Source of the DNA: Desulfotalea psychrophila LSv54
GTDB taxonomy: Bacteria > Desulfobacterota > Desulfobulbia > Desulfobulbales > Desulfocapsaceae
Direction: 5' to 3'
DNA: 32,000 nt
NCBI RefSeq assembly: GCF_000025945.1
Contig: NC_006138.1
Coordinates: 900,001 to 932,000 of the forward strand
Translations under genes and position numbers: made by a program
Notes under the pieces: model-generated
What the model was told of the DNA's origin: nothing
Database searches by the model: none
Seen by the model: the letters and a program-made list of their open reading frames with translations, nothing else
In this document: in pieces, positions 19,641 to 29,631 of the stretch
Layout of the letters: every line of letters begins with the position of its first letter
How positions within the stretch are numbered: the stretch's first letter is position 1

Positions 19641-20364
19641 TTAGCTTTTTTTTGCGAAGATTAAATTTATTTCGGTGGGAGAAAGCCTTTTGAATTGGCC
19701 AGTTGCCAGTGTTTGCAGTTCCAGCTTACCGTAGGCGATCCGTTTGAGGTGGTTAACAGGGTGGCCAATAGCGGCAAACATTTTTTTAACCTGATGCTTG
19801 CGTCCTTCGTGGATGGTGATGGCAACCTTGGTGCTATGTTTTTTTTGTGAGAGAATCTTTACCCTTGCAGGAGCGGTTGGCTTTCCCTCCAAAAGGATAC
19901 CCTGTTCAAGGCGCTGCAGTTTGGCCCTTGAGGGGGTGCCGCTGAGGTCAGCCTCATAGGTTTTAAAGGTTTCGTAGCTGGGGTGGCAGGGTCTTTTGGG
20001 CAAGATCGCCATCGTTGGTGAGGAGGAGAGCACCCTCCGTGTCAAAGTCAAGTCGACCCACGGGGAAAACTCTCTCATTAATGCCATGGAGAAGATCGGT
20101 TACCACCGGACGTCCCTGTGGATCTGATAGGGTTGTAACATATCCCTTTGGTTTATTGAGCAGGTAGTAGACCTTTTGCTCTTCTTCCTTAACCAGTTTG
20201 CCATCAACGGTAATCTTGTCGATGTCTGGAGTTATTTTTGTGCCAAGGATGAGGACTGTTTCACCGTTAAGGGTGACCCGGCCATCAAGGATGAGCTGCT
20301 CCGCTTTGCGACGGGAGCAGATGCCGGAGGCGGCTAAAAATTTTTGCAGGCGAACTGGAGACAT
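19641..20364 (-). pseudogene. rluB: RluB/RsuA-family pseudouridine synthase interrupted by a single +1 nt frameshift
   Basis: The S4 domain (MSPVRLQKFLAASGICSRRKAEQLI) and catalytic region (VFPVGRLDFDTEGALLLTNDGDLAQKTL) lie in one frame. HPSYETFKTYEADL...IHEGRKHQVKKMF lies in the next frame. Deleting one C near plus-strand base 19986 restores LLTNDGDLAQKTLHPSYE. The span is 724 nt, which is 3n+1. Confidence 0.85.
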
Positions 20365-20956: not shown

Positions 20957-21475
20957 ATGATTTTTCTTGTTGGTTATAGGGCAGTTGGCAAGACAACCCT
21001 GGGGAAAAAGCTCGCCAGGGAAATAGGCGCTGACTTTGTTGATCTTGATCGGTATATCTGTGAGGCAGCGGGGAGAACGGTTGAGGAGATAGTGGCAGTT
21101 GAAGGTTGGCAGGGGTTTCGCCTGCGTGAACGGGAGGCAATGCTTGCCGTTGCTGCTGAGGAGAGGCATCTTGTGGTGGCCACGGGTGGTGGGGCAGTTC
21201 TTCACCAGGATCTTTGGCCTATGTTGAAAAAAAAGGGGTTTGTTGTCTGGCTTACAGCAGAACAGGGGACATTATGTAAAAGGCTTTCGCGCAGGGCTCA
21301 GGATCCCGGTCGTCCCTCACTAACTGGGCAAGAGATGAGTGCAGAGGTGGAGAAGGTTTTAAGGGAGCGCCTGCCTCTCTATGATGCTGTTGCCGATGTT
21401 TCTGTGGCGACGGATCGACTATCAATAGTTGATGCCATCGAGCAGGTTCTTGATTATTATAGGAAAACTATTTGA
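20957..21475 (+). CDS. aroK: Shikimate kinase
   Basis: 172 aa with P-loop GYRAVGKTTLG, then DLD and GGG motifs at the spacing typical of AroK. Confidence 0.88.
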   Translation: MIFLVGYRAVGKTTLGKKLAREIGADFVDLDRYICEAAGRTVEEIVAVEGWQGFRLREREAMLAVAAEERHLVVATGGGAVLHQDLWPMLKKKGFVVWLTAEQGTLCKRLSRRAQDPGRPSLTGQEMSAEVEKVLRERLPLYDAVADVSVATDRLSIVDAIEQVLDYYRKTI

Positions 21476-21546
21476 ATTTGTGCCGAATAAATAATTAATA
21501 TGTGTGCTTTTCCAGGGACTTCCAAGCAAAAACAGGAGATAGTATT

Positions 21547-22551
21547 ATGACAATAAAGATTGGCATCAATGGTTTTGGACGTATTGGACGTAATATCTTT
21601 CGGGCACTGAGCAAGGATGAGGCATTTGCCGATATAGAGATCGTTGCAATCAATGACCTCAGCGATAATGCTACTCTTGCTCATCTCTTGAAGTACGATT
21701 CTATTATGGGGGTCTATGACAGAGAGGTGGGGAGCGACGCTGATGGCATTATTGTTGATGGAAGGCATATAGCTGTTTCAAGTCATCGAACTCCTGCAGA
21801 CATTCCCTGGGGAGAGGTGGGTGCTGACTATATTGCAGAGTGTACCGGTATTTTTCGTGATGCCGAGTCTGCTCAGGGCCATATTGATGCCGGGGCCTCT
21901 AAGGTAGTTATCTCCGCTCCTGCCAAGGGGGCTGTTAAGACCATTGTTATGGGCGTTAATGAGGATGAGTATGATGCAACTCTTCACCATATTGTCTCCG
22001 CTGCCTCATGTACCACAAACTGCCTGGCCCCCTTTGCCAAGGTGATTCTTGATAATTTTGGTATATCTCGTGGCCTGATGACTACCATTCATGCCTATAC
22101 GGGCGATCAGCGCCTGTTGGATTCTCCTCATGCTGACCCTCGCAGAGCCCGGGCCGCAGCCCTCTCTATGATTCCTACCAAAACAGGCGCTGCCGCGGCG
22201 GTATCTCTGGTCATTCCTGAACTGAAGGGGAAATTTGATGGTCTTGCCGTACGGGTTCCCACCGCCAATGTCTCTTTGGTTGATGCTGTGATGGAGGTCG
22301 AGAAGGAGACAAGCGTGGCAGAGGTGAATCAGGTCTTAAAAGAGGCTGCTAACCGATATCTTGGTTATACTGATCTGCCCCTTGTTTCCATTGACTTTCA
22401 GGGGAATCCCCACTCTTCAATCATCGACGCCCAGTCCACCAAGGTAATTGGCAAAAGCGTCAAGGTGATGAGCTGGTACGACAATGAGTGGGCCTATTCT
22501 AACAGGATGCTTGATCTGATACTGCATATGGATGCCCGTAGGGCCCTGTAA
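21547..22551 (+). CDS. gap: Type I glyceraldehyde-3-phosphate dehydrogenase
   Basis: INGFGRIGR, active site SCTTNCLAP and WYDNEW. Start is trimmed to ATG 21547, which has CAGGAGA upstream. Confidence 0.96.
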   Translation: MTIKIGINGFGRIGRNIFRALSKDEAFADIEIVAINDLSDNATLAHLLKYDSIMGVYDREVGSDADGIIVDGRHIAVSSHRTPADIPWGEVGADYIAECTGIFRDAESAQGHIDAGASKVVISAPAKGAVKTIVMGVNEDEYDATLHHIVSAASCTTNCLAPFAKVILDNFGISRGLMTTIHAYTGDQRLLDSPHADPRRARAAALSMIPTKTGAAAAVSLVIPELKGKFDGLAVRVPTANVSLVDAVMEVEKETSVAEVNQVLKEAANRYLGYTDLPLVSIDFQGNPHSSIIDAQSTKVIGKSVKVMSWYDNEWAYSNRMLDLILHMDARRAL

Positions 22552-22577
22552 GTCGGTAGGTGGGGATAAATCTTTTA

Positions 22578-22614
22578 GGGGGAGGCACTGGCTGGTGACC
22601 TTCCCTTTTTTTTG
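22578..22614 (+). terminator. Rho-independent terminator after gap
   Basis: Stem GGGGAGGCAC / GTGACCTTCCC (one bulge) followed by T8 at 22606-22613. Confidence 0.7.
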
Positions 22615-22695
22615 TTTTATGAGAGTGCTATTTTCCCTGTACTCAGGCCTCTCCGCTACCCCTATAAAAAATTGTTACTCTTCTTAGGTATAACT

Positions 22696-25600
22696 ATGGA
22701 TCGTCATGATGTTGGTCAGGTTTTGCAGTCCGATGCCCTGAAGGCAAACCTTCTGGAAACGGCAGGCACTGTTGAAATTGATAGTGAATTACTGCTACTT
22801 CTCTCAGCTGTAAAGAAGTATCGGGGTCTTCATAAGACTTTGGAAAAGTTGCTCTATGAAATTTGTCATCCTTTTCGAAACTGGAAACTTATTCTTCCCC
22901 AGTTTCGAAGTTATACCCTGAAGAATACAGGGCATTATTTAAAGGATGAGTCCGGTCCAGAGGCAGTAGGGCTTTTTGCCCGTCTGTTTTTTGAGGCCAT
23001 AGAGGATGTGCGTCGAGATCCCGTCCTGCTTGCTCAGGCAGTGGCGGCTCTGCTTATCTGGCTAGAGAAGCTGGCAAAGGATTTACCTGAGGGGAGGCAA
23101 GAGGCGTTTGAGCCTGTCCTGACCGATATCTTTTCCCGCCTCACTCGTTTTGATGAAGAGGATGAGGCCGCGATGATGCAGATGGTTTATGGCCAGTGTT
23201 CTCTGGCGGGGTTGGTTCGTGCCCGCCTGAGCTCTTCTGAGACGGAGGGGGCGGATTGCTCTTCCCTGGTCAGGCTCTATGAGATGGTTTTACACAGGAC
23301 CTATGCCTACTGGCTCTTGGAAGATGATCCCCTCCAGTGGTTTTTGATGAGATGCAAGATGGTTGCCAATGATCTTACTGCAAGGGAGACGTTTAAAGAT
23401 ATCTCCCATCTGTCCATGCAGTCGCGCTTGACTGAACTCAAGCGTATTCGTCAGGAAACAGCAGGTGTCGCGACCCTCAGGGCCATGCTAGGACTTGCCT
23501 CTCATATTGATATTGTTCGTTTTTATCGGGCGATCCCCGATAAGCTTGCCGAGTTAGATATCGTCTCCGACTGTTTCGCTAAAGAGGATGCGGCAAGTTC
23601 TAATTTTAACGAAAATAGAAAGATCCTCTTTCTCTTTAAAATAATGGATACAGAGGGGCTACATCTTGTCCACGAAGAAACCCTCCGGGAAATTAACAGA
23701 AGCCTGGTTCAGTTAATTCGCCAGCAGACCTTTGAGGAGATTGAAGAGTTTCTTTTGGCAACTTTTGAACTGTTGGAGGTCAATGTAAGGAAGTACCCAC
23801 ATACCTCTCTGCAGTGTATTCAGGTTTTGGGTGGTGAGGTCTTTGACCGGAGCAACAGCCGCATGGTGGAGGCATTTTTGTGGGGAGTGGTTCGCTTTGG
23901 CTTTCAGCATGCCAATGTCGTTGGGGTGGATGAGAATTGGCAACCTCTGACTAACCCTGCCCATCTGGCCAATATTCGAGTGTGGTTGCATTTAATCATG
24001 CGGGAGCCAAAGTGGTGTGCGACCCTCTTTTCTGCCCTTATCATTCATATTAAACTTTCGGGCACCTGCATTAAGGATACGGATCTTTTTCAGCGTGATA
24101 TTACCGAGCTACTTAACCATCCCATTAAGCCCGTCTATAATCTCTGCAAACAGTTCGCCAAGCTTATGCCCGTTTTTTTTAATGAGATAGGATCTGAAGG
24201 GGAGTTACGCGATGTCTCTACAGAACTTGATGAGATGCATCGGCGAAAAGATGTCCTTATTCACTTTCTGAGAAAGCAGGGGCATGTGGAGAGTTCCAAT
24301 CTTATTGTCGATTTTATTAAGGCAATTTTTCTTTTCTGGCAGACAAAGGACAAGAGTAAATTACAGCCTCATGTTCCGGATGAGGTCTATGTCCAGGTCT
24401 CTTCCGAGGGACGATATGTTGATGAAGCACATAGGCTTACCCTGCGATTGTGGCAGGAGCAAAATCTGAAAAATGTCTCCGACCTTCTTGGTGTTGATGA
24501 GGAGACGATGGCGGAGTTTTTGCTTCGTCAGCAGGATATTGATCCCCGTGAGGTGCGCCGTTTTGAGCTGTTGGTTCGTATGTTTAAGTTGCTCCATGCC
24601 AAGTATCAGCTGAGCTTTCAGGATTTGCGTCCAGAACTTCTTGCCGCGGCCAAGAACGGTTTTCCGCAAATGAGAGACCTGCTCGATAGGCTTGATCAGA
24701 AGGATGTTCGGCAAAGTTTGTCGGCTCTTTTGCAGAGCCTGCTTGCCCTTAAGGAGATTATCCTCTCCGAGGAGAGTTTTGAGGCCCGGGAGGATATTTA
24801 CTATAAGAGGCATATTGCCGTAGATATTCCATCTGTTTATGGTCGCTATAAGGAGCGTAAGTTTGACGCCCTGAGTCTCTCCTTTCGTCTGGAGAATCAT
24901 GCCAACATCTATCTGGAAAAATTGGCCGGCACCATCAACCTGGCCATGATCACTCAGGCAACTTTTTATGATATTATTGGCTGCCTGAAGCTCTATATTC
25001 AGGCCCTCAGTGTCGACGGTATCAGCTCTCGTAAATTGGTGACCAGTCTCTCTCTGCTTAAAAACTCGCTTAAGGTACGGCGTTTTTCCTATACCCAGTA
25101 TCTGGATATCTTTAAGGGGATGTCCGAGGGGGTAAAGGATATTATCTATGCCTTTTACACAAATATCCATCAGAACAATCTCTCTATCATTATTCCTCAG
25201 CTGAGTCGAGAAGAGGTGATGCAGAAGTATAGATCGCTCTATGATGAGGATATGGGCATCTCTGTTCATCGGGTTTCCGAGGCCTTTTTGCGTGAGCTTA
25301 TCTCTTCAACATTTGGCCTGCAACATCTGGATAATTTTATTTTGCAGATTCTTGCTACCCTTGAAAATCAGCGGGAGATGCTTTCGGAGAGAAATCTTGA
25401 TCTGCTTATGACCTACAATCCCAATAGGGCTATTTCTGAGCTGCACAATCCTAATCCTCTTGCCAGTAATCTCATCTATCTTGGCAATAAGGGCTTTAAT
25501 CTGGCAACCCTTGCCGCTGATAATAAGCCCATTCCGCCTGCCTTTGTCATTACCACCGAGGTCTTTCGTTGTCGTAATATTGTCTTTGGCTATTCAGAGG

Positions 25601-26961
25601 CGAGACAGCAGTTTATGGGCAAGATTAGAAGATCGCTGACGGAGTTGGAGGATAGTCAGGATAAGTTTTTTGGCTCATCGGACAGACCTCTGCTTCTCTC
25701 CGTTCGAAGCGGTGGCGCCATTTCTATGCCGGGGATGATGGCCACGGTTCATAATGTTGGCTTTAATCAGGAGATTATTCGGGAGTATGCGCGCAAACAT
25801 GGTGAGGGATATTTTGCCTGGGATAATTATCGTCGCTTTCTTCAGTCCTGGGCAATGATCTGTGATGTTGATCGAGAGGATTTTCAGGCCCTTATGGATT
25901 CGGCCAAACAGAGGCACGGGGTGCGCCTTAAACGGGATTTTACCTCGGCGCAGATGGAGGAGTTGGCCCTCTCGTATTATCAACTTGTCTGTGAAAAAGG
26001 GGTGGTTATTCCGGATAATCCCTGGTTGCAGCTGGTCGGCGCTATAGAGCTTGTTCTTGATTCCTGGCACACGACCAAGGCAACTGATTATAGGAGGGTT
26101 ATGGATCTCTCTGAATCCTGGGGGACAGCCGTTATTGTCCAAACCATGATATATGGTAATAAGAGCAGTCGCTCAGGTTCGGGTGTTGTCTTCACCTCTC
26201 ATCCATATCGTAAGGTGCAGCGGGTGGCCCTCTGGGGTGATTATGCCTATGGTAGTCAGGGGGAGGATATTGTTTCCGGGCTGGTCACCAGTTATGCTAT
26301 CTCCATGGAGCAGGCCCAGCTTGATGGTCGTTCTGCGGAGAACACCCTGGAACGAAAATTTCCGAAAATATATGCCGAGCTGCTCAGCATGTCACGGGAA
26401 CTTGTCTACGGGAAGGGGTGGAACCCTCAGGAGATAGAGTTCACCTTTGAGGGAGAGGAGGCTGACCAGCTCTATATCCTTCAATCCCGGGATATGATTA
26501 CTATCAAGAAGAAGGAACACCTTCAGGTCTTTGAAGAGAGCGTGGCCCTGCAGGAGGCGTATCTGGGCCATGGTGTTGGTGTTTCTGGTTCTGCCCTCTC
26601 CGGCTTGGCCGTTTTTACCGAAGAGCATATCGCAGAGATTCGGGCTCGGGATGCAGATGTACCCCTGATTCTTATTCGTCAGGATACTGTGCCGGAGGAC
26701 ATTAAGATTGTTGATCTGGCGGATGGTCTGCTTACCTCACGGGGTGGTCAAACCTCCCATGCCTCCGTGGTTGCGGTGCGTCTTGAAAAAACCTGTGTTG
26801 TTGGCTGTCGCAGATTAAAGGTCTTTGAAACTCTGGGCTATTGTGAGATCAGGGGGAAACGGATCCATTTTGCTGATCCTGTCTCTATTGATGGGCGAAG
26901 CGGTCAGCTCCTGGTGGGTATTCATCCCATTAAAGAAGAGTATCATATCCTGCCTATTTAG
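22696..26961 (+). CDS. Large PPDK/PEP-synthase-family dikinase-like protein: ~920-aa uncharacterised helical N-terminal region, PPDK-type ATP-grasp domain, phospho-histidine swivel domain; no PEP/pyruvate TIM-barrel
   Basis: Uninterrupted ORF. The C-terminal 500 aa match PPDK motif by motif (LGNKGFNLATL, PLLLSVRSGGAISMPGMMATVHNVGFN, YRRFLQSW, GTAVIVQTMIYGN, SGSGVVFT, QGEDIVSG, EIEFTFE, LYILQSRDM, LLTSRGGQTSHASVVAVRL). Start is placed at ATG 22696, downstream of the gap terminator. The TTG at 22612 lies inside that terminator. Confidence 0.85.
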   Translation: MDRHDVGQVLQSDALKANLLETAGTVEIDSELLLLLSAVKKYRGLHKTLEKLLYEICHPFRNWKLILPQFRSYTLKNTGHYLKDESGPEAVGLFARLFFEAIEDVRRDPVLLAQAVAALLIWLEKLAKDLPEGRQEAFEPVLTDIFSRLTRFDEEDEAAMMQMVYGQCSLAGLVRARLSSSETEGADCSSLVRLYEMVLHRTYAYWLLEDDPLQWFLMRCKMVANDLTARETFKDISHLSMQSRLTELKRIRQETAGVATLRAMLGLASHIDIVRFYRAIPDKLAELDIVSDCFAKEDAASSNFNENRKILFLFKIMDTEGLHLVHEETLREINRSLVQLIRQQTFEEIEEFLLATFELLEVNVRKYPHTSLQCIQVLGGEVFDRSNSRMVEAFLWGVVRFGFQHANVVGVDENWQPLTNPAHLANIRVWLHLIMREPKWCATLFSALIIHIKLSGTCIKDTDLFQRDITELLNHPIKPVYNLCKQFAKLMPVFFNEIGSEGELRDVSTELDEMHRRKDVLIHFLRKQGHVESSNLIVDFIKAIFLFWQTKDKSKLQPHVPDEVYVQVSSEGRYVDEAHRLTLRLWQEQNLKNVSDLLGVDEETMAEFLLRQQDIDPREVRRFELLVRMFKLLHAKYQLSFQDLRPELLAAAKNGFPQMRDLLDRLDQKDVRQSLSALLQSLLALKEIILSEESFEAREDIYYKRHIAVDIPSVYGRYKERKFDALSLSFRLENHANIYLEKLAGTINLAMITQATFYDIIGCLKLYIQALSVDGISSRKLVTSLSLLKNSLKVRRFSYTQYLDIFKGMSEGVKDIIYAFYTNIHQNNLSIIIPQLSREEVMQKYRSLYDEDMGISVHRVSEAFLRELISSTFGLQHLDNFILQILATLENQREMLSERNLDLLMTYNPNRAISELHNPNPLASNLIYLGNKGFNLATLAADNKPIPPAFVITTEVFRCRNIVFGYSEARQQFMGKIRRSLTELEDSQDKFFGSSDRPLLLSVRSGGAISMPGMMATVHNVGFNQEIIREYARKHGEGYFAWDNYRRFLQSWAMICDVDREDFQALMDSAKQRHGVRLKRDFTSAQMEELALSYYQLVCEKGVVIPDNPWLQLVGAIELVLDSWHTTKATDYRRVMDLSESWGTAVIVQTMIYGNKSSRSGSGVVFTSHPYRKVQRVALWGDYAYGSQGEDIVSGLVTSYAISMEQAQLDGRSAENTLERKFPKIYAELLSMSRELVYGKGWNPQEIEFTFEGEEADQLYILQSRDMITIKKKEHLQVFEESVALQEAYLGHGVGVSGSALSGLAVFTEEHIAEIRARDADVPLILIRQDTVPEDIKIVDLADGLLTSRGGQTSHASVVAVRLEKTCVVGCRRLKVFETLGYCEIRGKRIHFADPVSIDGRSGQLLVGIHPIKEEYHILPI
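25468..26958 (+). other. PPDK-like nucleotide-binding (ATP-grasp) plus swivel phospho-His module; predicted catalytic His codon at 26758-26760
   Basis: See the motifs listed for the parent CDS. GGQTSHAS corresponds to the GGxTSHAA phospho-carrier motif of PEP-utilising enzymes. The protein ends ~65 aa after it. Confidence 0.8.
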
Positions 26962-27253
26962 AATTGGTTTGTTCGGGCTGGAAGAATGAGCGGAGATCGA
27001 TGAGCATTTTTCTAATACGTTTATCGGTAATTGAATTACGGATAAACGTATGATCTCTCTTGGATGTAACAAGGCCCTGAGCCCTGAGTATATTGAGATG
27101 CTGGGAGAGATTTGGGTGACTTGTCTGCAGTTGGGCAAGTAATTCCCCTGTGCTGCACTCCCCTTCAAGTAATAGATAGAGGACCTTGAGGCGAATAGGG
27201 TGTCCCATTGTCTTGAGGATGGCAGAAGTTGCTTCCAGGTATGTATCTTGCAT
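26954..27253 (-). CDS. ArsR/SmtB-family winged-helix transcriptional regulator
   Basis: ILKTMGHPIRLKVLYLLLEGECSTGELLAQLQTSHPNLSQHLNILRAQGLV matches the ArsR HTH core. Start is taken at ATG 27251-27253 (99 aa). The ORF is open up to 27391, a 46-aa basic extension. Confidence 0.75.
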   Translation of the reverse strand: MQDTYLEATSAILKTMGHPIRLKVLYLLLEGECSTGELLAQLQTSHPNLSQHLNILRAQGLVTSKRDHTFIRNSITDKRIRKMLIDLRSFFQPEQTNSK

Positions 27254-27635
27254 AAATTGTTGGTTTTGTTTGTTGTTTTTCTTTTTGTCGAGTGTGGCTT
27301 TTGCCTGATACCATCTCTTCCTATCCCGTTGGCTATCTTTCTGAGAATAGCTCCTAATTTCCTTTGTAGCAAGATATGGATGACTTAACATAAAAATGTT
27401 GGCTTCTTTATAAGGGATATGGTTTATTTATATCAATTTCTTTGATGATTCGTGGGTGGAGTTGTTGGGGCTCTTGAGTAAGCGGAGCTACTTACATTCT
27501 GTGAGAAGAGTTAGTAGCTGAAGAAAAACATTGCCTCAACCCATATTTACGATATCAAAAAACATTGAGATGTAGGGATATAGGATAGGGACATTTTTTG
27601 TGGGACGAACATTAATTGTAAGAAGAGGGACAATC

Positions 27636-29631
27636 ATGAGTGATATGAAGCCAAAGATTGAGAGCTTGTTGCAAGAGGATCGCCTTTTTGCGCCACCAGT
27701 TGCGGGGAAGAGTACAGCCTATATTTCCAGTATGGCAGAATATGAAGAGATTTATAAGCGCTCCATTGAAGATCCGGAAGGTTTTTGGGCGGAACGCGCT
27801 GAAGAATTGGTCTCTTGGTCGAAGAAATGGCACACTGTCCTGGAGGCGGATTTTGCTGTTCCCATGGTTAAATGGTTTGATGGTGCGACCCTGAATGCTT
27901 CTTATAACTGTTTGGATCGTCATATAGAAAATGGCCTTGGTGATAAAAAGGCCCTTATCTGGCAAGGTGAGCCGGAAGATGACTGCATAGAGTATACCTA
28001 TAGCGAGCTTCTTGCCGAGGTATGTCGTTTTGCCAATGTCCTGAAAAAAAAGGGGGTTCAGCGGGGTGATAGGGTTTCTGTCTATCTGCCTATGGTGCCA
28101 GAACTTACCATTGCCCTTCTTGCCTGTGCCCGGATCGGTGCGGTGCATGCAGTCGTCTTTGCCGGGTTTTCAGCAGCAAGTCTTGAAAATCGTCTCCAGG
28201 ATTGCGGGGCAAAGGTACTTGTTACTGCCGATGCTGTTCTGCGTGCCGGTAAGACCATTCCCCTCAAGCCCAACGCCGATGAGGCGCTTGAAGAGTGTGA
28301 TCTGGTTGAGCACTGTATTGTGGTAAAGCGGGCCGGAAATGAGGTCGAGATGGAGGAGGGACGTGATAGCTGGTGGCATGAGGATGTCGCCGCCTCTGAT
28401 ATCAGTGATCAGTGCCTGCCCGAGGAGATGGAGGCAGAGGATATTCTGTTTATTCTCTATACCTCCGGATCCACCGGTCAACCTAAGGGGGTTGTTCACA
28501 CCACCGGCGGATATCTTACCTACGCAATGCATACCACTCAGTGGGTTTTTGATCTTAAGGGGGATGATGTCTACTGGTGTACGGCAGATATTGGCTGGAT
28601 TACCGGTCACTCCTATATTGTTTATGGTCCTCTTGGCTTGGGCGGTACCTCTCTTATGTTTGAAGGAGTTCCCTCTTATCCCGATGCTGGCAGGTTCTGG
28701 CGAATTGTTGAAAAGTTTAAGGTCTCAATTTTTTATACGGCCCCCACTGTTATTCGGGCCCTGATGCGTTCCGGTACGGATCCGGTTGATCGTTACGATA
28801 TCTCTTCTCTTCGTGTTCTGGGCTCTGTTGGTGAGCCTATTAATCCAGAGGCCTGGATGTGGTACCATACCCATATTGGCAAGGGTCAGCTTCCCATTGT
28901 CGATACCTGGTGGCAGACCGAAACCGGGGCAATTATGATTGCTCCCCTGCCCTACGCTACGCCACTTAAGCCCGGAGCAGCAAGTAAACCTCTGCCCGGT
29001 GTTGATGTAGCTGTCCTCAATGAGGAGGGTAAAGAGGTCGGCCCCAATGAGGGTGGACGCTTGGTTATTCGTCAGCCATGGCCGGGGATGTTCCGTGGTG
29101 TTTATGGTGATTCGGCCCGGTTTAAAACCAACTATTTTGAGGCTTATCCCGGGGTATACGATGCCGGGGATGGCGTCCGCTGTGATGAGGATGGCTATTA
29201 CTGGGCGATGGGCCGTCTTGACGGCGGTTATTAATGTTTCGGGCCATAGAATGGGATCGGCCTCAGATAGAATCGGCTCTTGTTGCTGATGTGCGGCAGT
29301 GGGTGAGGCGTCAGTTGTGGGTATTCCACATCCTGTTAAGGCTCAGGCTATCTATGCCTTTGTTACCCTAAACAATGGCGTGTAAGAGACCCCTCAGCTT
29401 GTGCTAGAACTTCCAGCCCATGTGTGCAGTGGAATTGGACCAAGTGCCTCTCCTGATGTTATTCAGTATGCCCCTGGTCTTCCTAAGACGAGAACCGGTA
29501 AGATCATGCGTCGGGTTTTACGTAAAATTGCCGAGGGTGATTTTGATAATTTTGGTGATACCAGTACCCTTGCCGATCCAACGGTGATAGAGAGGTTAAT
29601 TCAGGGACGGGAAGTAGCAACTGGTAAGTAG
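27636..29631 (+). pseudogene. acs: Acetyl-CoA synthetase (AMP-forming), 3' part disrupted by three indels and an in-frame TAA
   Basis: The gene is intact to codon ~530 (YTSGSTGQPKG, WWQTETG, DEDGYYW). It then changes frame at ~29223-29227 (VINVSGHRMGSA), ~29263 (IESALVAD) and ~29290-29292 ([28 protein letters not shown]). TAA lies at 29383-29385, followed by ...[20 protein letters not shown]...* ending at 29631. The span is 1996 nt, which is 3n+1. Confidence 0.85.

Follow-up and report, generated by a model that had tools for sequence, protein, structure and literature searches.

We analysed a window of 32,000 nucleotides from the genome of Desulfotalea psychrophila LSv54 (NCBI RefSeq assembly GCF_000025945.1, contig NC_006138.1, positions 900,001 to 932,000 of the forward strand; positions below count from its first letter). 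The genes considered here lie in the order aroK, gap, a long dikinase gene, a convergent ArsR-family gene and acs (Table 1). The dikinase joins a phosphotransfer module related to pyruvate, phosphate dikinase (PPDK) to a long N-terminal region, and its gene is genomically coupled, across several phyla and in every locus set that we surveyed, to genes of the glyceraldehyde-3-phosphate dehydrogenase (GAPDH) family. This adjacency is the strongest clue to its function.

A PPDK-type module and a conserved helical core

The plus-strand open reading frame (ORF) spans 22612-26961 in the ORF list, with TTG at 22612 as the first possible start. We placed the start at ATG 22696 because the N-termini of orthologues align there, which gives a product of 1,421 aa. 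A D. psychrophila entry named 'PEP/pyruvate-binding domain-containing protein' (PEP, phosphoenolpyruvate) matches this product with 100% identity. Pfam places PPDK_N (PF01326) at residues 972-1219 (E 5e-27) and the PEP-utilizers mobile domain (PF00391) at residues 1324-1403 (E 3e-15), and finds no PEP/pyruvate TIM barrel in the whole protein. With phmmer against PDB sequences, residues 927-1408 align with residues 16-507 of C. symbiosum PPDK (E 7e-76). An earlier note, made from the letters of the window, had described just such a PPDK-like stretch of ~500 aa at the C-terminus, had located the codon of the phospho-carrier His, and had seen the protein stop ~65 aa later without a TIM barrel. 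All of this agrees with our results: the motif GLLTSRGGQTSHASVVAVRL is present, translation gives its His as residue 1355, and the C-terminus lies 66 residues past it.

Comparison with NCBIfam models yielded 349 bits for the PPDK equivalog TIGR01828 (cutoff 843; model positions 17-335 covered), 277 bits for the short-PPDK model NF004531 (cutoff 456), and 67 bits for PEP synthase TIGR01418 (cutoff 740), where the His-domain region alone matches. The rifampicin phosphotransferase model NF041857 scored 21 bits against a cutoff of 999, and the RPH, PigC and RedH models 20-31 bits against cutoffs of 999 and above. Examined as a possible anti-phage defence or phage protein, the dikinase matched no family among the PADLOC and PHROGs models. 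It falls outside PPDK, PEP synthase, VadK-type short PPDK, rifampicin phosphotransferase and glucan, water dikinase (GWD). It does carry an ATP-grasp and a mobile domain on one polypeptide with the catalytic residues intact, and in this working logic it resembles a member of the swivel-His dikinase superfamily.

The catalytic residues, on whose conservation in orthologues the earlier reading depended, are retained when 90 full-length members are aligned. K932, the Lys of the ATP-grasp, occurs in 90/90 and R1004 (the Arg of VRSG) in 84/90; the SMPGMM loop keeps its P-G in 90/90, E1246 is kept in 88/90, and E1248, Q1263 and R1265 in 89/90 each. Around the carrier His, the counts are 86/90 for T1353, 87/90 for S1354 and 83/90 for H1355. 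Since the tail beyond the His has a median length of 67 aa and never exceeds 77 aa, a PEP/pyruvate domain is missing from all 90. We also considered a frameshifted TIM-barrel remnant 3' of the gene, which the earlier note had looked for without success, and rejected it: the ArsR ORF overlaps the 3' end of the dikinase and leaves no room for one, and none occurs in any of the 90 relatives.

Departures from the catalytic pattern come from one member that looks truncated or frameshifted and, for the remainder, from a single 1,540-aa lineage (L088:7001-11623, P0312, cluster P0164). Proteins of this lineage have a hemerythrin domain at the N-terminus and no GAPDH neighbour; their His is replaced by Tyr and R1004 by Gly, and the invariant residues of the N-terminal core are retained. 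They may be a sensor or pseudo-enzyme derivative.

Residues 1-920 gave no real match in Pfam, NCBIfam, PHROGs or PADLOC, the weak below-cutoff matches being bPH_1 and SarA/Rot only (E 0.09-0.23), and an hmmsearch of the N-terminal profile against all PDB sequences reached a best E of 0.25. The region consists of two parts. Among 47 diverse members, residues 1-295 show a mean pairwise identity of 0.20 with 1% of columns at least 90% conserved, and the alignment of many distant members begins only at about residue 270-330. In the same members, near-invariant columns make up 12.5% of core residues 306-560, 14.8% of the His domain and 19.9% of the ATP-grasp domain. Across the 90 full-length sequences, 47 N-terminal residues are at least 95% conserved. 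They are mostly charged or polar (Arg, Lys, His, Asp, Glu) and include H423, R428, D461, D463, E501, R505, D512, R517, D519, H523, R526, K527, H530, E532, E699, K704, H706, Y715, Y718, E720, R731, E862, R866 and D879. Such invariant charged residues are as expected for a putative site that binds an anionic phospho-substrate together with a metal.

A first AlphaFold2 model, which covered residues 1-920 and drew on close homologues alone, had a mean confidence (pLDDT) of 73, and we dismissed its Foldseek matches to solenoids as generic (template-modelling score, TM, about 0.14). A second model, of residues 300-920 with 57 diverse sequences, reached pLDDT 91.9 and a predicted TM score (pTM) of 0.90. 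The modelled core is almost all-helical; its single beta-hairpin, at about 698-719, is formed by the invariant EDIYYKRHIAVDIPSVYGRY stretch. A Foldseek search of this model against 350,542 PDB chains returned no match at E<1e-3, and all hits were generic helical repeats with TM no higher than 0.2. The core is predicted with confidence to form a domain, and no structure related to it has been solved. The earlier description of a helical region of ~920 aa without a recognisable motif or known domain thus withstood the Foldseek, Pfam, NCBIfam and PDB-sequence searches, and its suggestion that the non-PPDK part would be the acceptor-binding domain is still the best reading, with sequence conservation in the core near that of the His domain.

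Distribution of the family and its pairing with GAPDH

A word-index search with residues 1-920 alone matched 1,104 proteins. The best 120 of them are nearly all ~1,420 aa long with the same two Pfam domains and 61-71% identity, and come from Desulfocapsaceae/Desulfobulbales (Desulfomarina, Desulfopila, Desulforhopalus, Desulfosediminicola, Desulfocastanea). An exhaustive phmmer run against 1.84 billion cluster representatives found the N-terminal region in 559 clusters (50% identity) at E<=1e-3 and in 194 at E<=1e-30, including full-length proteins of 1,350-1,540 aa down to 29% identity. A scan of one genome per GTDB species confirmed at least 588 loci, among them cable bacteria (Ca. Electrothrix), Desulfurivibrio and Desulfocicer vacuolatum. 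The family spreads over Desulfobulbia, Syntrophobacteraceae, Nitrospirota, Actinomycetota, Acidobacteriota and Myxococcota, with named members in Syntrophobacteraceae, Thermodesulfovibrio (Nitrospirota), Miltoncostaeaceae (Actinomycetota), Myxococcota and unclassified Thermodesulfobacteriota. Their names are all automatic: 'pyruvate, phosphate dikinase', 'PEP/pyruvate-binding domain-containing protein' or 'PEP-utilizing enzyme'. The label 'orphan' in the earlier note, which had proposed that distribution and neighbours be surveyed, has to be withdrawn for a family of this extent.

Three Desulfobulbia genomes have a glgA-like GT5 gene ahead of gap and the dikinase, with a convergent YgaP-like/ArsR pair and acs behind them, and the gap-dikinase order taken alone could reflect nothing more than synteny. 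In four deep lineages, however, the dikinase again has a GAPDH-family gene beside it while all other neighbours differ. This GAPDH gene lies about 1 kb downstream in Syntrophobacteraceae, 20 bp downstream in Thermodesulfovibrio and 35 bp downstream in one further lineage, and overlaps the dikinase by 4 bp in Miltoncostaeaceae (a single locus each).

We then surveyed the neighbourhoods of 170 loci in three sets. Among 84 Desulfobulbia-like loci, 71 have adequate flanks; a canonical 334-aa gap lies upstream in 59 of these, and within 600 bp on the same strand in 53. The distant set comprises 80 loci from a metagenome scan with an actinobacterial member, to which they are 27-49% identical. Here, 57 of the 60 loci with adequate flanks have a GAPDH neighbour, arranged as a long GAPDH downstream on the same strand (32), a long GAPDH downstream and convergent (16) or a short one upstream (9). 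When all neighbouring ORFs were clustered, GAPDH came first, with 112/170 loci, and was the sole family to recur in all three sets; glgA-like, ArsR, acs, YjbQ, aroC and alaS neighbours are essentially restricted to Desulfobulbia. The earlier view of gap as an unrelated neighbour is overturned by this recurrence. One locus (L143) reads gapS, dikinase, gapL, pgk, tpiA, secG, an order confirmed with Pfam, and eight further loci are variants of it. Together with the glgA-like-gap-dikinase order, this operon context suggests a place for the dikinase in triose-phosphate and gluconeogenic metabolism.

In distant lineages, the partner is usually a long GAPDH paralogue (408-453 aa). It differs from canonical GAPDH by four insertions and scores 274-329 bits on TIGR01534, under the cutoff of 367. 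The catalytic Cys and His are kept in 44/44 long and 72/72 short neighbour GAPDHs, as are the aligned Thr and Args that we take to be the phosphate-site residues; to judge from these residues, the neighbour GAPDHs look catalytically competent. The motif N-L-G-R-[E/D] replaces the canonical I-N-D in the long form, at a place where the alignment is ambiguous and does not separate NAD from NADP use. For a reciprocal test, GAPDHs were chosen blind, solely by similarity to the long GAPDH of Thermodesulfovibrio. In 3/3 cases, a gene with PPDK_N and PEP-utilizers domains (1,387-1,391 aa) was found 24-92 bp upstream. These GAPDHs come from an Acidobacteriota metagenome-assembled genome (MAG), a 'Dissul...' MAG and one metagenome. 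Because the pairing is reciprocal and the remaining neighbours are unrelated, we regard the long GAPDH and the dikinase as a module. The long form appears to be a distinct GAPDH subfamily with a dedicated dikinase partner, annotated as generic GAPDH only.

Several other neighbours are restricted in range. In Syntrophobacteraceae (L005:3070-7947) the dikinase follows an rpoN-hpf-ptsN(EIIA-Ntr)-rapZ-EIIA(Man)-GNAT cluster, which recurs in 13 similar places within this one lineage; a link to the nitrogen or regulatory phosphotransferase system, whose enzyme I has a homologous swivel-His domain, is a possibility. An alpha-glucan phosphorylase gene stands two genes upstream in one locus (L173:1-1981). 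In 7 loci a protein of ~645 aa is encoded directly downstream of the dikinase (cluster 18; L078/L085), by eye a candidate GspE/PilB-type secretion ATPase.

In D. psychrophila itself, the minimum free energy (MFE) fold between gap and the dikinase shows a bulged 13-bp stem followed by UUUUUUUU. An intrinsic terminator after gap, as the earlier note had it, is plausible from this hairpin and its U8 tract, but the folding z-score of -0.97 is not significant and a simple terminator scan was silent on the hairpin. The spacer between the two genes is often just 18-200 bp in relatives. A simple promoter/terminator scan showed no enrichment, and Rfam at the gathering threshold found no family on either strand of window 1-32000. 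The convergent ArsR gene overlaps the dikinase as described earlier. ArsR neighbours occur in 29 loci, almost all in Desulfobulbia, and are probably lineage-specific synteny outside the system. A small YgaP-like membrane gene stands between dikinase and ArsR in relatives, and the overlap in D. psychrophila arises because this gene is missing there. A link to arsenate through an ArsJ-type GAPDH was rejected, as ArsR is lineage-restricted and the window GAPDH falls under the cutoff of the ArsJ-associated model.

The position directly upstream of gap, taken by aroK in D. psychrophila (window 20957-22551), is held in relatives L001, L002 and L004 by a glgA-like GT5 glycogen synthase gene, preceded in L002 by aroC. 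The acetyl-CoA synthetase gene acs (window 27600-29631, plus strand) looks frameshifted, either a pseudogene or a sequencing error: its ORF ends at 29234 with 544 aa, against 651-664 aa in relatives, and the Desulfomarina orthologue aligns by tblastn in two pieces, in frame +3 at 27747-29222 and in frame +1 at 29191-29622. An rluB-type pseudouridine synthase gene (window 19656-20364, minus strand), judged against the 239-aa Desulfomarina orthologue, is split over frames -3/-1 with a junction near 19975-19985. These two broken housekeeping genes lie within 10 kb; the 4.3-kb dikinase ORF is intact.

Table 1. Positions of the features discussed (window coordinates, except for the long GAPDH examples, which are given in locus coordinates)
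Feature	Position	Strand	Basis
gap, canonical type I GAPDH, 334 aa	21547..22551	+	TIGR01534 428 bits, cutoff 367
Hairpin and U8, possible intrinsic terminator between gap and dikinase	22577..22613	+	MFE structure
Dikinase gene, 1,421 aa, GAPDH-associated	22696..26961	+	ORF list; TAG stop 26959-26961
Variable helical N-terminal part, residues 1-295	22696..23580	+	AlphaFold2 helical; low conservation
Conserved core, no known fold, putative acceptor-binding or catalytic, residues 306-915	23611..25440	+	AlphaFold2; conservation
PPDK-type ATP-grasp nucleotide-binding domain, residues 925-1270	25468..26505	+	PF01326, TIGR01828, PDB 1kbl alignment
Swivelling phospho-His domain, residues 1296-1410	26581..26925	+	PF00391; PPDK central domain PDB 2fm4, E 1e-15
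Phospho-carrier His1355 codon cat, GGQTSHA motif	26758..26760	+	Translation
ArsR-family regulator ORF, convergent	26954..27391	-	HTH_5 E 2e-14; minus-strand stop 26954-26956; 8-nt overlap with dikinase 3' end
Long GAPDH examples	L006:12106-13332; L007:12209-13447; L089:11211-12464; L005:13319-14680; L171-L173:7001-~8270

Proposed reaction and competing explanations

We consider it likely that the dikinase is an active swivel-His phosphotransferase, that its novel domain binds the acceptor and that it is functionally tied to GAPDH. By homology, the ATP-grasp and mobile His module (~925-1410) would load a phosphoryl group from ATP on His1355. Loading would proceed through a pyrophosphoryl-His, whose gamma-phosphate would pass to Pi, giving AMP + PPi; these co-products are expected because the module is PPDK-like and not PEP-synthase-like (349 vs 67 bits). 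The C-terminally tethered His domain would swing to core 306-915, which would take the place of the TIM barrel and bind the phosphoryl acceptor.

For the acceptor, we tentatively propose 3-phosphoglycerate (3-PG), with 1,3-bisphosphoglycerate (1,3-BPG) as the product. The reaction would be 3-PG + ATP + Pi -> 1,3-BPG + AMP + PPi, and the 1,3-BPG would serve the neighbouring GAPDH. Such an enzyme would be an alternative to phosphoglycerate kinase (PGK) in gluconeogenesis that forms AMP and is strongly driven, as PPDK and PEP synthase are to pyruvate kinase; in reverse, ATP might be rebuilt from AMP + PPi. Several considerations lead us to this guess. GAPDH is the specific, reciprocal partner, a shared metabolite is the simplest link between the two, and 1,3-BPG is the labile acyl-phosphate substrate of GAPDH. 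The invariant residues of the core are identical whether the partner is a long or a canonical GAPDH, a pattern more in keeping with one small ligand shared by both than with an interface particular to each partner. The dikinase coexists with PGK as PPDK and PEP synthase do with pyruvate kinase, and the glgA-gap-dikinase order of Desulfobulbia suits an anabolic direction. PGK and GAPDH together are endergonic in the gluconeogenic direction under standard conditions, against which the drive of ATP -> AMP would aid energy-limited anaerobes. Succinyl-CoA synthetase, in which an acyl phosphate is made by an ATP-grasp domain and a mobile phospho-His, offers a chemical precedent. As a compromise between the likely general statement and the more tentative 3-PG reaction, we put the probability of the explanation as a whole at about 0.4.

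A number of observations weigh against it. To our knowledge, the acceptors of the superfamily are hydroxyl or enolate oxygens, and a carboxylate would be new. The dikinase has no gap nearby in 3 distant loci and in 12 well-flanked Desulfobulbia-like loci, Electrothrix among them. PGK is encoded in the dikinase operon in at least 9 loci, so the dikinase is not a simple replacement for PGK. Co-transcription of gap and dikinase is doubtful in D. psychrophila, because the hairpin with its U8 tract stands between them. Since the hemerythrin-fused lineage keeps the core invariants without the His, the N-terminal domain may have a function independent of phosphotransfer. Finally, a literature search that left subscription journals outside its reach found no paper on the family, the N-terminal domain or the long GAPDH.

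The main rival, which we regard as unlikely, is a regulator resembling VadK of Mycobacterium tuberculosis. The module would then do no more than autophosphorylate, and the helical region would dock GAPDH or phosphorylate a protein, tuning flux to ATP/AMP/PPi with no small-molecule turnover. VadK (Rv1127c) is a PPDK truncated to its ATP-grasp and His domains, autophosphorylates on His422 as shown by mass spectrometry, and interacts with methylcitrate synthase and methylcitrate dehydratase, enzymes of the pathway that it tunes (bioRxiv 10.1101/2025.10.30.685616). The 277 bits that our module scores on NF004531 point the same way, this 534-position model (PRK05878) being one that we take to represent the truncated PPDK of the Rv1127c type; the two partner enzymes of VadK (PrpC, PrpD) are encoded near Rv1127c. 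In addition, the N-terminal region is nearly all-helical with protein-binding solenoids as its only, weak Foldseek neighbours, the four lineage-specific insertions of the long GAPDH could be docking surfaces, and both the His-less, hemerythrin-fused lineage and the rpoN-hpf-ptsN-rapZ-EIIA(Man) context in Syntrophobacteraceae hint at sensing or regulation. In contrast, the conservation of the core is enzyme-like, with its 12.5% of near-invariant columns mostly charged and the same with either GAPDH; the solenoid matches are non-significant (TM<=0.2); and VadK performs its role without an extra domain. If a regulator it is, the principle of PPDK remnants acting as metabolic regulators would extend from mycobacteria to many anaerobic phyla.

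We find it improbable that the protein is a structurally novel true PPDK, in which the core would be a non-homologous replacement of the TIM barrel and the nearness of gap, pgk and tpiA would reflect a general gluconeogenesis cluster. The nucleotide and His domains are indeed closest to PPDK (TIGR01828 349 bits, against 67 for PEP synthase and 21 for rifampicin phosphotransferase), the gene sits in glycolysis/gluconeogenesis contexts, and public annotations all say PPDK or PEP synthase. Yet these annotations are automatic and based on the two shared domains only, and the gene pairs specifically and reciprocally with GAPDH, including a dedicated paralogue; enolase, phosphoglycerate mutase and pyruvate-metabolising genes show no such pairing. 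We also know of no PEP-utilising enzyme without a TIM barrel.

Equally improbable is an isolated phosphotransferase for a metabolite or xenobiotic, unrelated to its neighbours, like rifampicin phosphotransferase or flavonoid phosphate synthetase. The architecture would be compatible, and 15 loci with adequate flanks have no gap neighbour. Against this stand the size of the family (559 clusters at 50% identity, at least 588 species genomes), a GAPDH association far above chance, and strong purifying selection with chromosomal, housekeeping-type contexts, which speak against a resistance or accessory role; there was also no PADLOC match, and the rifampicin phosphotransferase model gave 21 bits against its cutoff of 999.

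Least of all do we expect a glucan (glycogen) dikinase, whose N-terminal region would bind glycogen for phosphorylation by analogy with GWD, itself about 1,400 aa long and without a PEP domain: 53 loci have a glgA-like GT5 gene immediately before gap and L173 has an alpha-glucan phosphorylase two genes upstream, but 47 of the 53 belong to the Desulfobulbia (set A), so that this neighbour is probably lineage synteny, Pfam detects no carbohydrate-binding module, the order of ATP-grasp then His is opposite to that of GWD (His then nucleotide domain), and the recurrent partner is GAPDH and not a glycogen enzyme.

Under the favoured explanation, the phosphotransfer engine is a known one, the acceptor domain and the partner are new, and the reaction is probably new. 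The steps between 3-PG and glyceraldehyde-3-phosphate are usually held to be universally those of PGK and GAPDH. That the dikinase and the long GAPDH form an unrecognised two-enzyme route of lower glycolysis/gluconeogenesis in anaerobes, with a '3-phosphoglycerate dikinase' built on a domain of new fold making or consuming 1,3-BPG and passing it to GAPDH, is a doubtful prospect; if true, it would be the third ATP -> AMP 'dikinase bypass' in central carbon metabolism, beside PEP synthase and PPDK, and sulfate reducers could link triose-phosphate flux to the AMP + PPi pool from sulfate activation. At least 588 species-level genomes contain this family, which bears the names PPDK or PEP synthase without a PEP/pyruvate-binding domain, so that reconstructions of metabolism in sulfate reducers, cable bacteria, syntrophs and Nitrospirota are likely to carry a wrong function where they take over these names. 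The family offers a new putative acceptor domain whose fold is predicted with confidence and has no solved relative, a hypothesis testable by standard GAPDH-coupled assays and an undescribed, dedicated GAPDH subfamily.

Comparison with known systems

PPDK (EC 2.7.9.1; C. symbiosum, PDB 1kbl/1dik) is the nearest relative by its module: the ATP-grasp and swivel-His domains are homologous and the Lys/Arg/Glu/Gln/Arg/Thr-Ser-His residues are kept, from which we expect both enzymes to share the first two partial reactions. Unlike PPDK, the dikinase family has no C-terminal TIM barrel and carries instead a 920-aa N-terminal extension with a conserved core. Moreover, its His domain hangs C-terminally on a single tether, whereas that of PPDK sits between two domains.

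VadK and the dikinase are both PPDK derivatives without the PEP/pyruvate domain. ATP- and Mg2+-dependent autophosphorylation on the conserved His, shown for VadK, is predicted for the dikinase from its conserved residues. VadK has about 490 aa and no third domain, while the dikinase has 920 extra aa with enzyme-like conservation. The partner pathway is the methylcitrate cycle for VadK and GAPDH/triose phosphates for the dikinase.

Rifampicin phosphotransferase, PigC/RedH, phenylphosphate synthase, flavonoid phosphate synthetase and GWD share with the dikinase the combination of ATP-grasp, mobile His and a family-specific acceptor domain. Rifampin phosphotransferase consists of just these three kinds of domain: ATP-grasp, rifampin-binding and His swivel (PMC4844700). 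The dikinase differs from these enzymes in that its putative acceptor domain is N-terminal and unrelated in sequence, its nucleotide and His domains are of the PPDK and not the PEP-synthase subtype, and its gene is found in settings of central metabolism rather than of secondary metabolism or resistance; in contrast to rifampicin phosphotransferase, no domain is inserted between its ATP-grasp and His domains.

If our best guess is right, the dikinase would resemble the PGK and GAPDH pair in its product, 1,3-BPG, and in its coupling to GAPDH. It has no sequence or fold relationship to PGK, with which it coexists in the same operon in some genomes, and it is predicted to convert ATP to AMP + PPi/Pi rather than to ADP.

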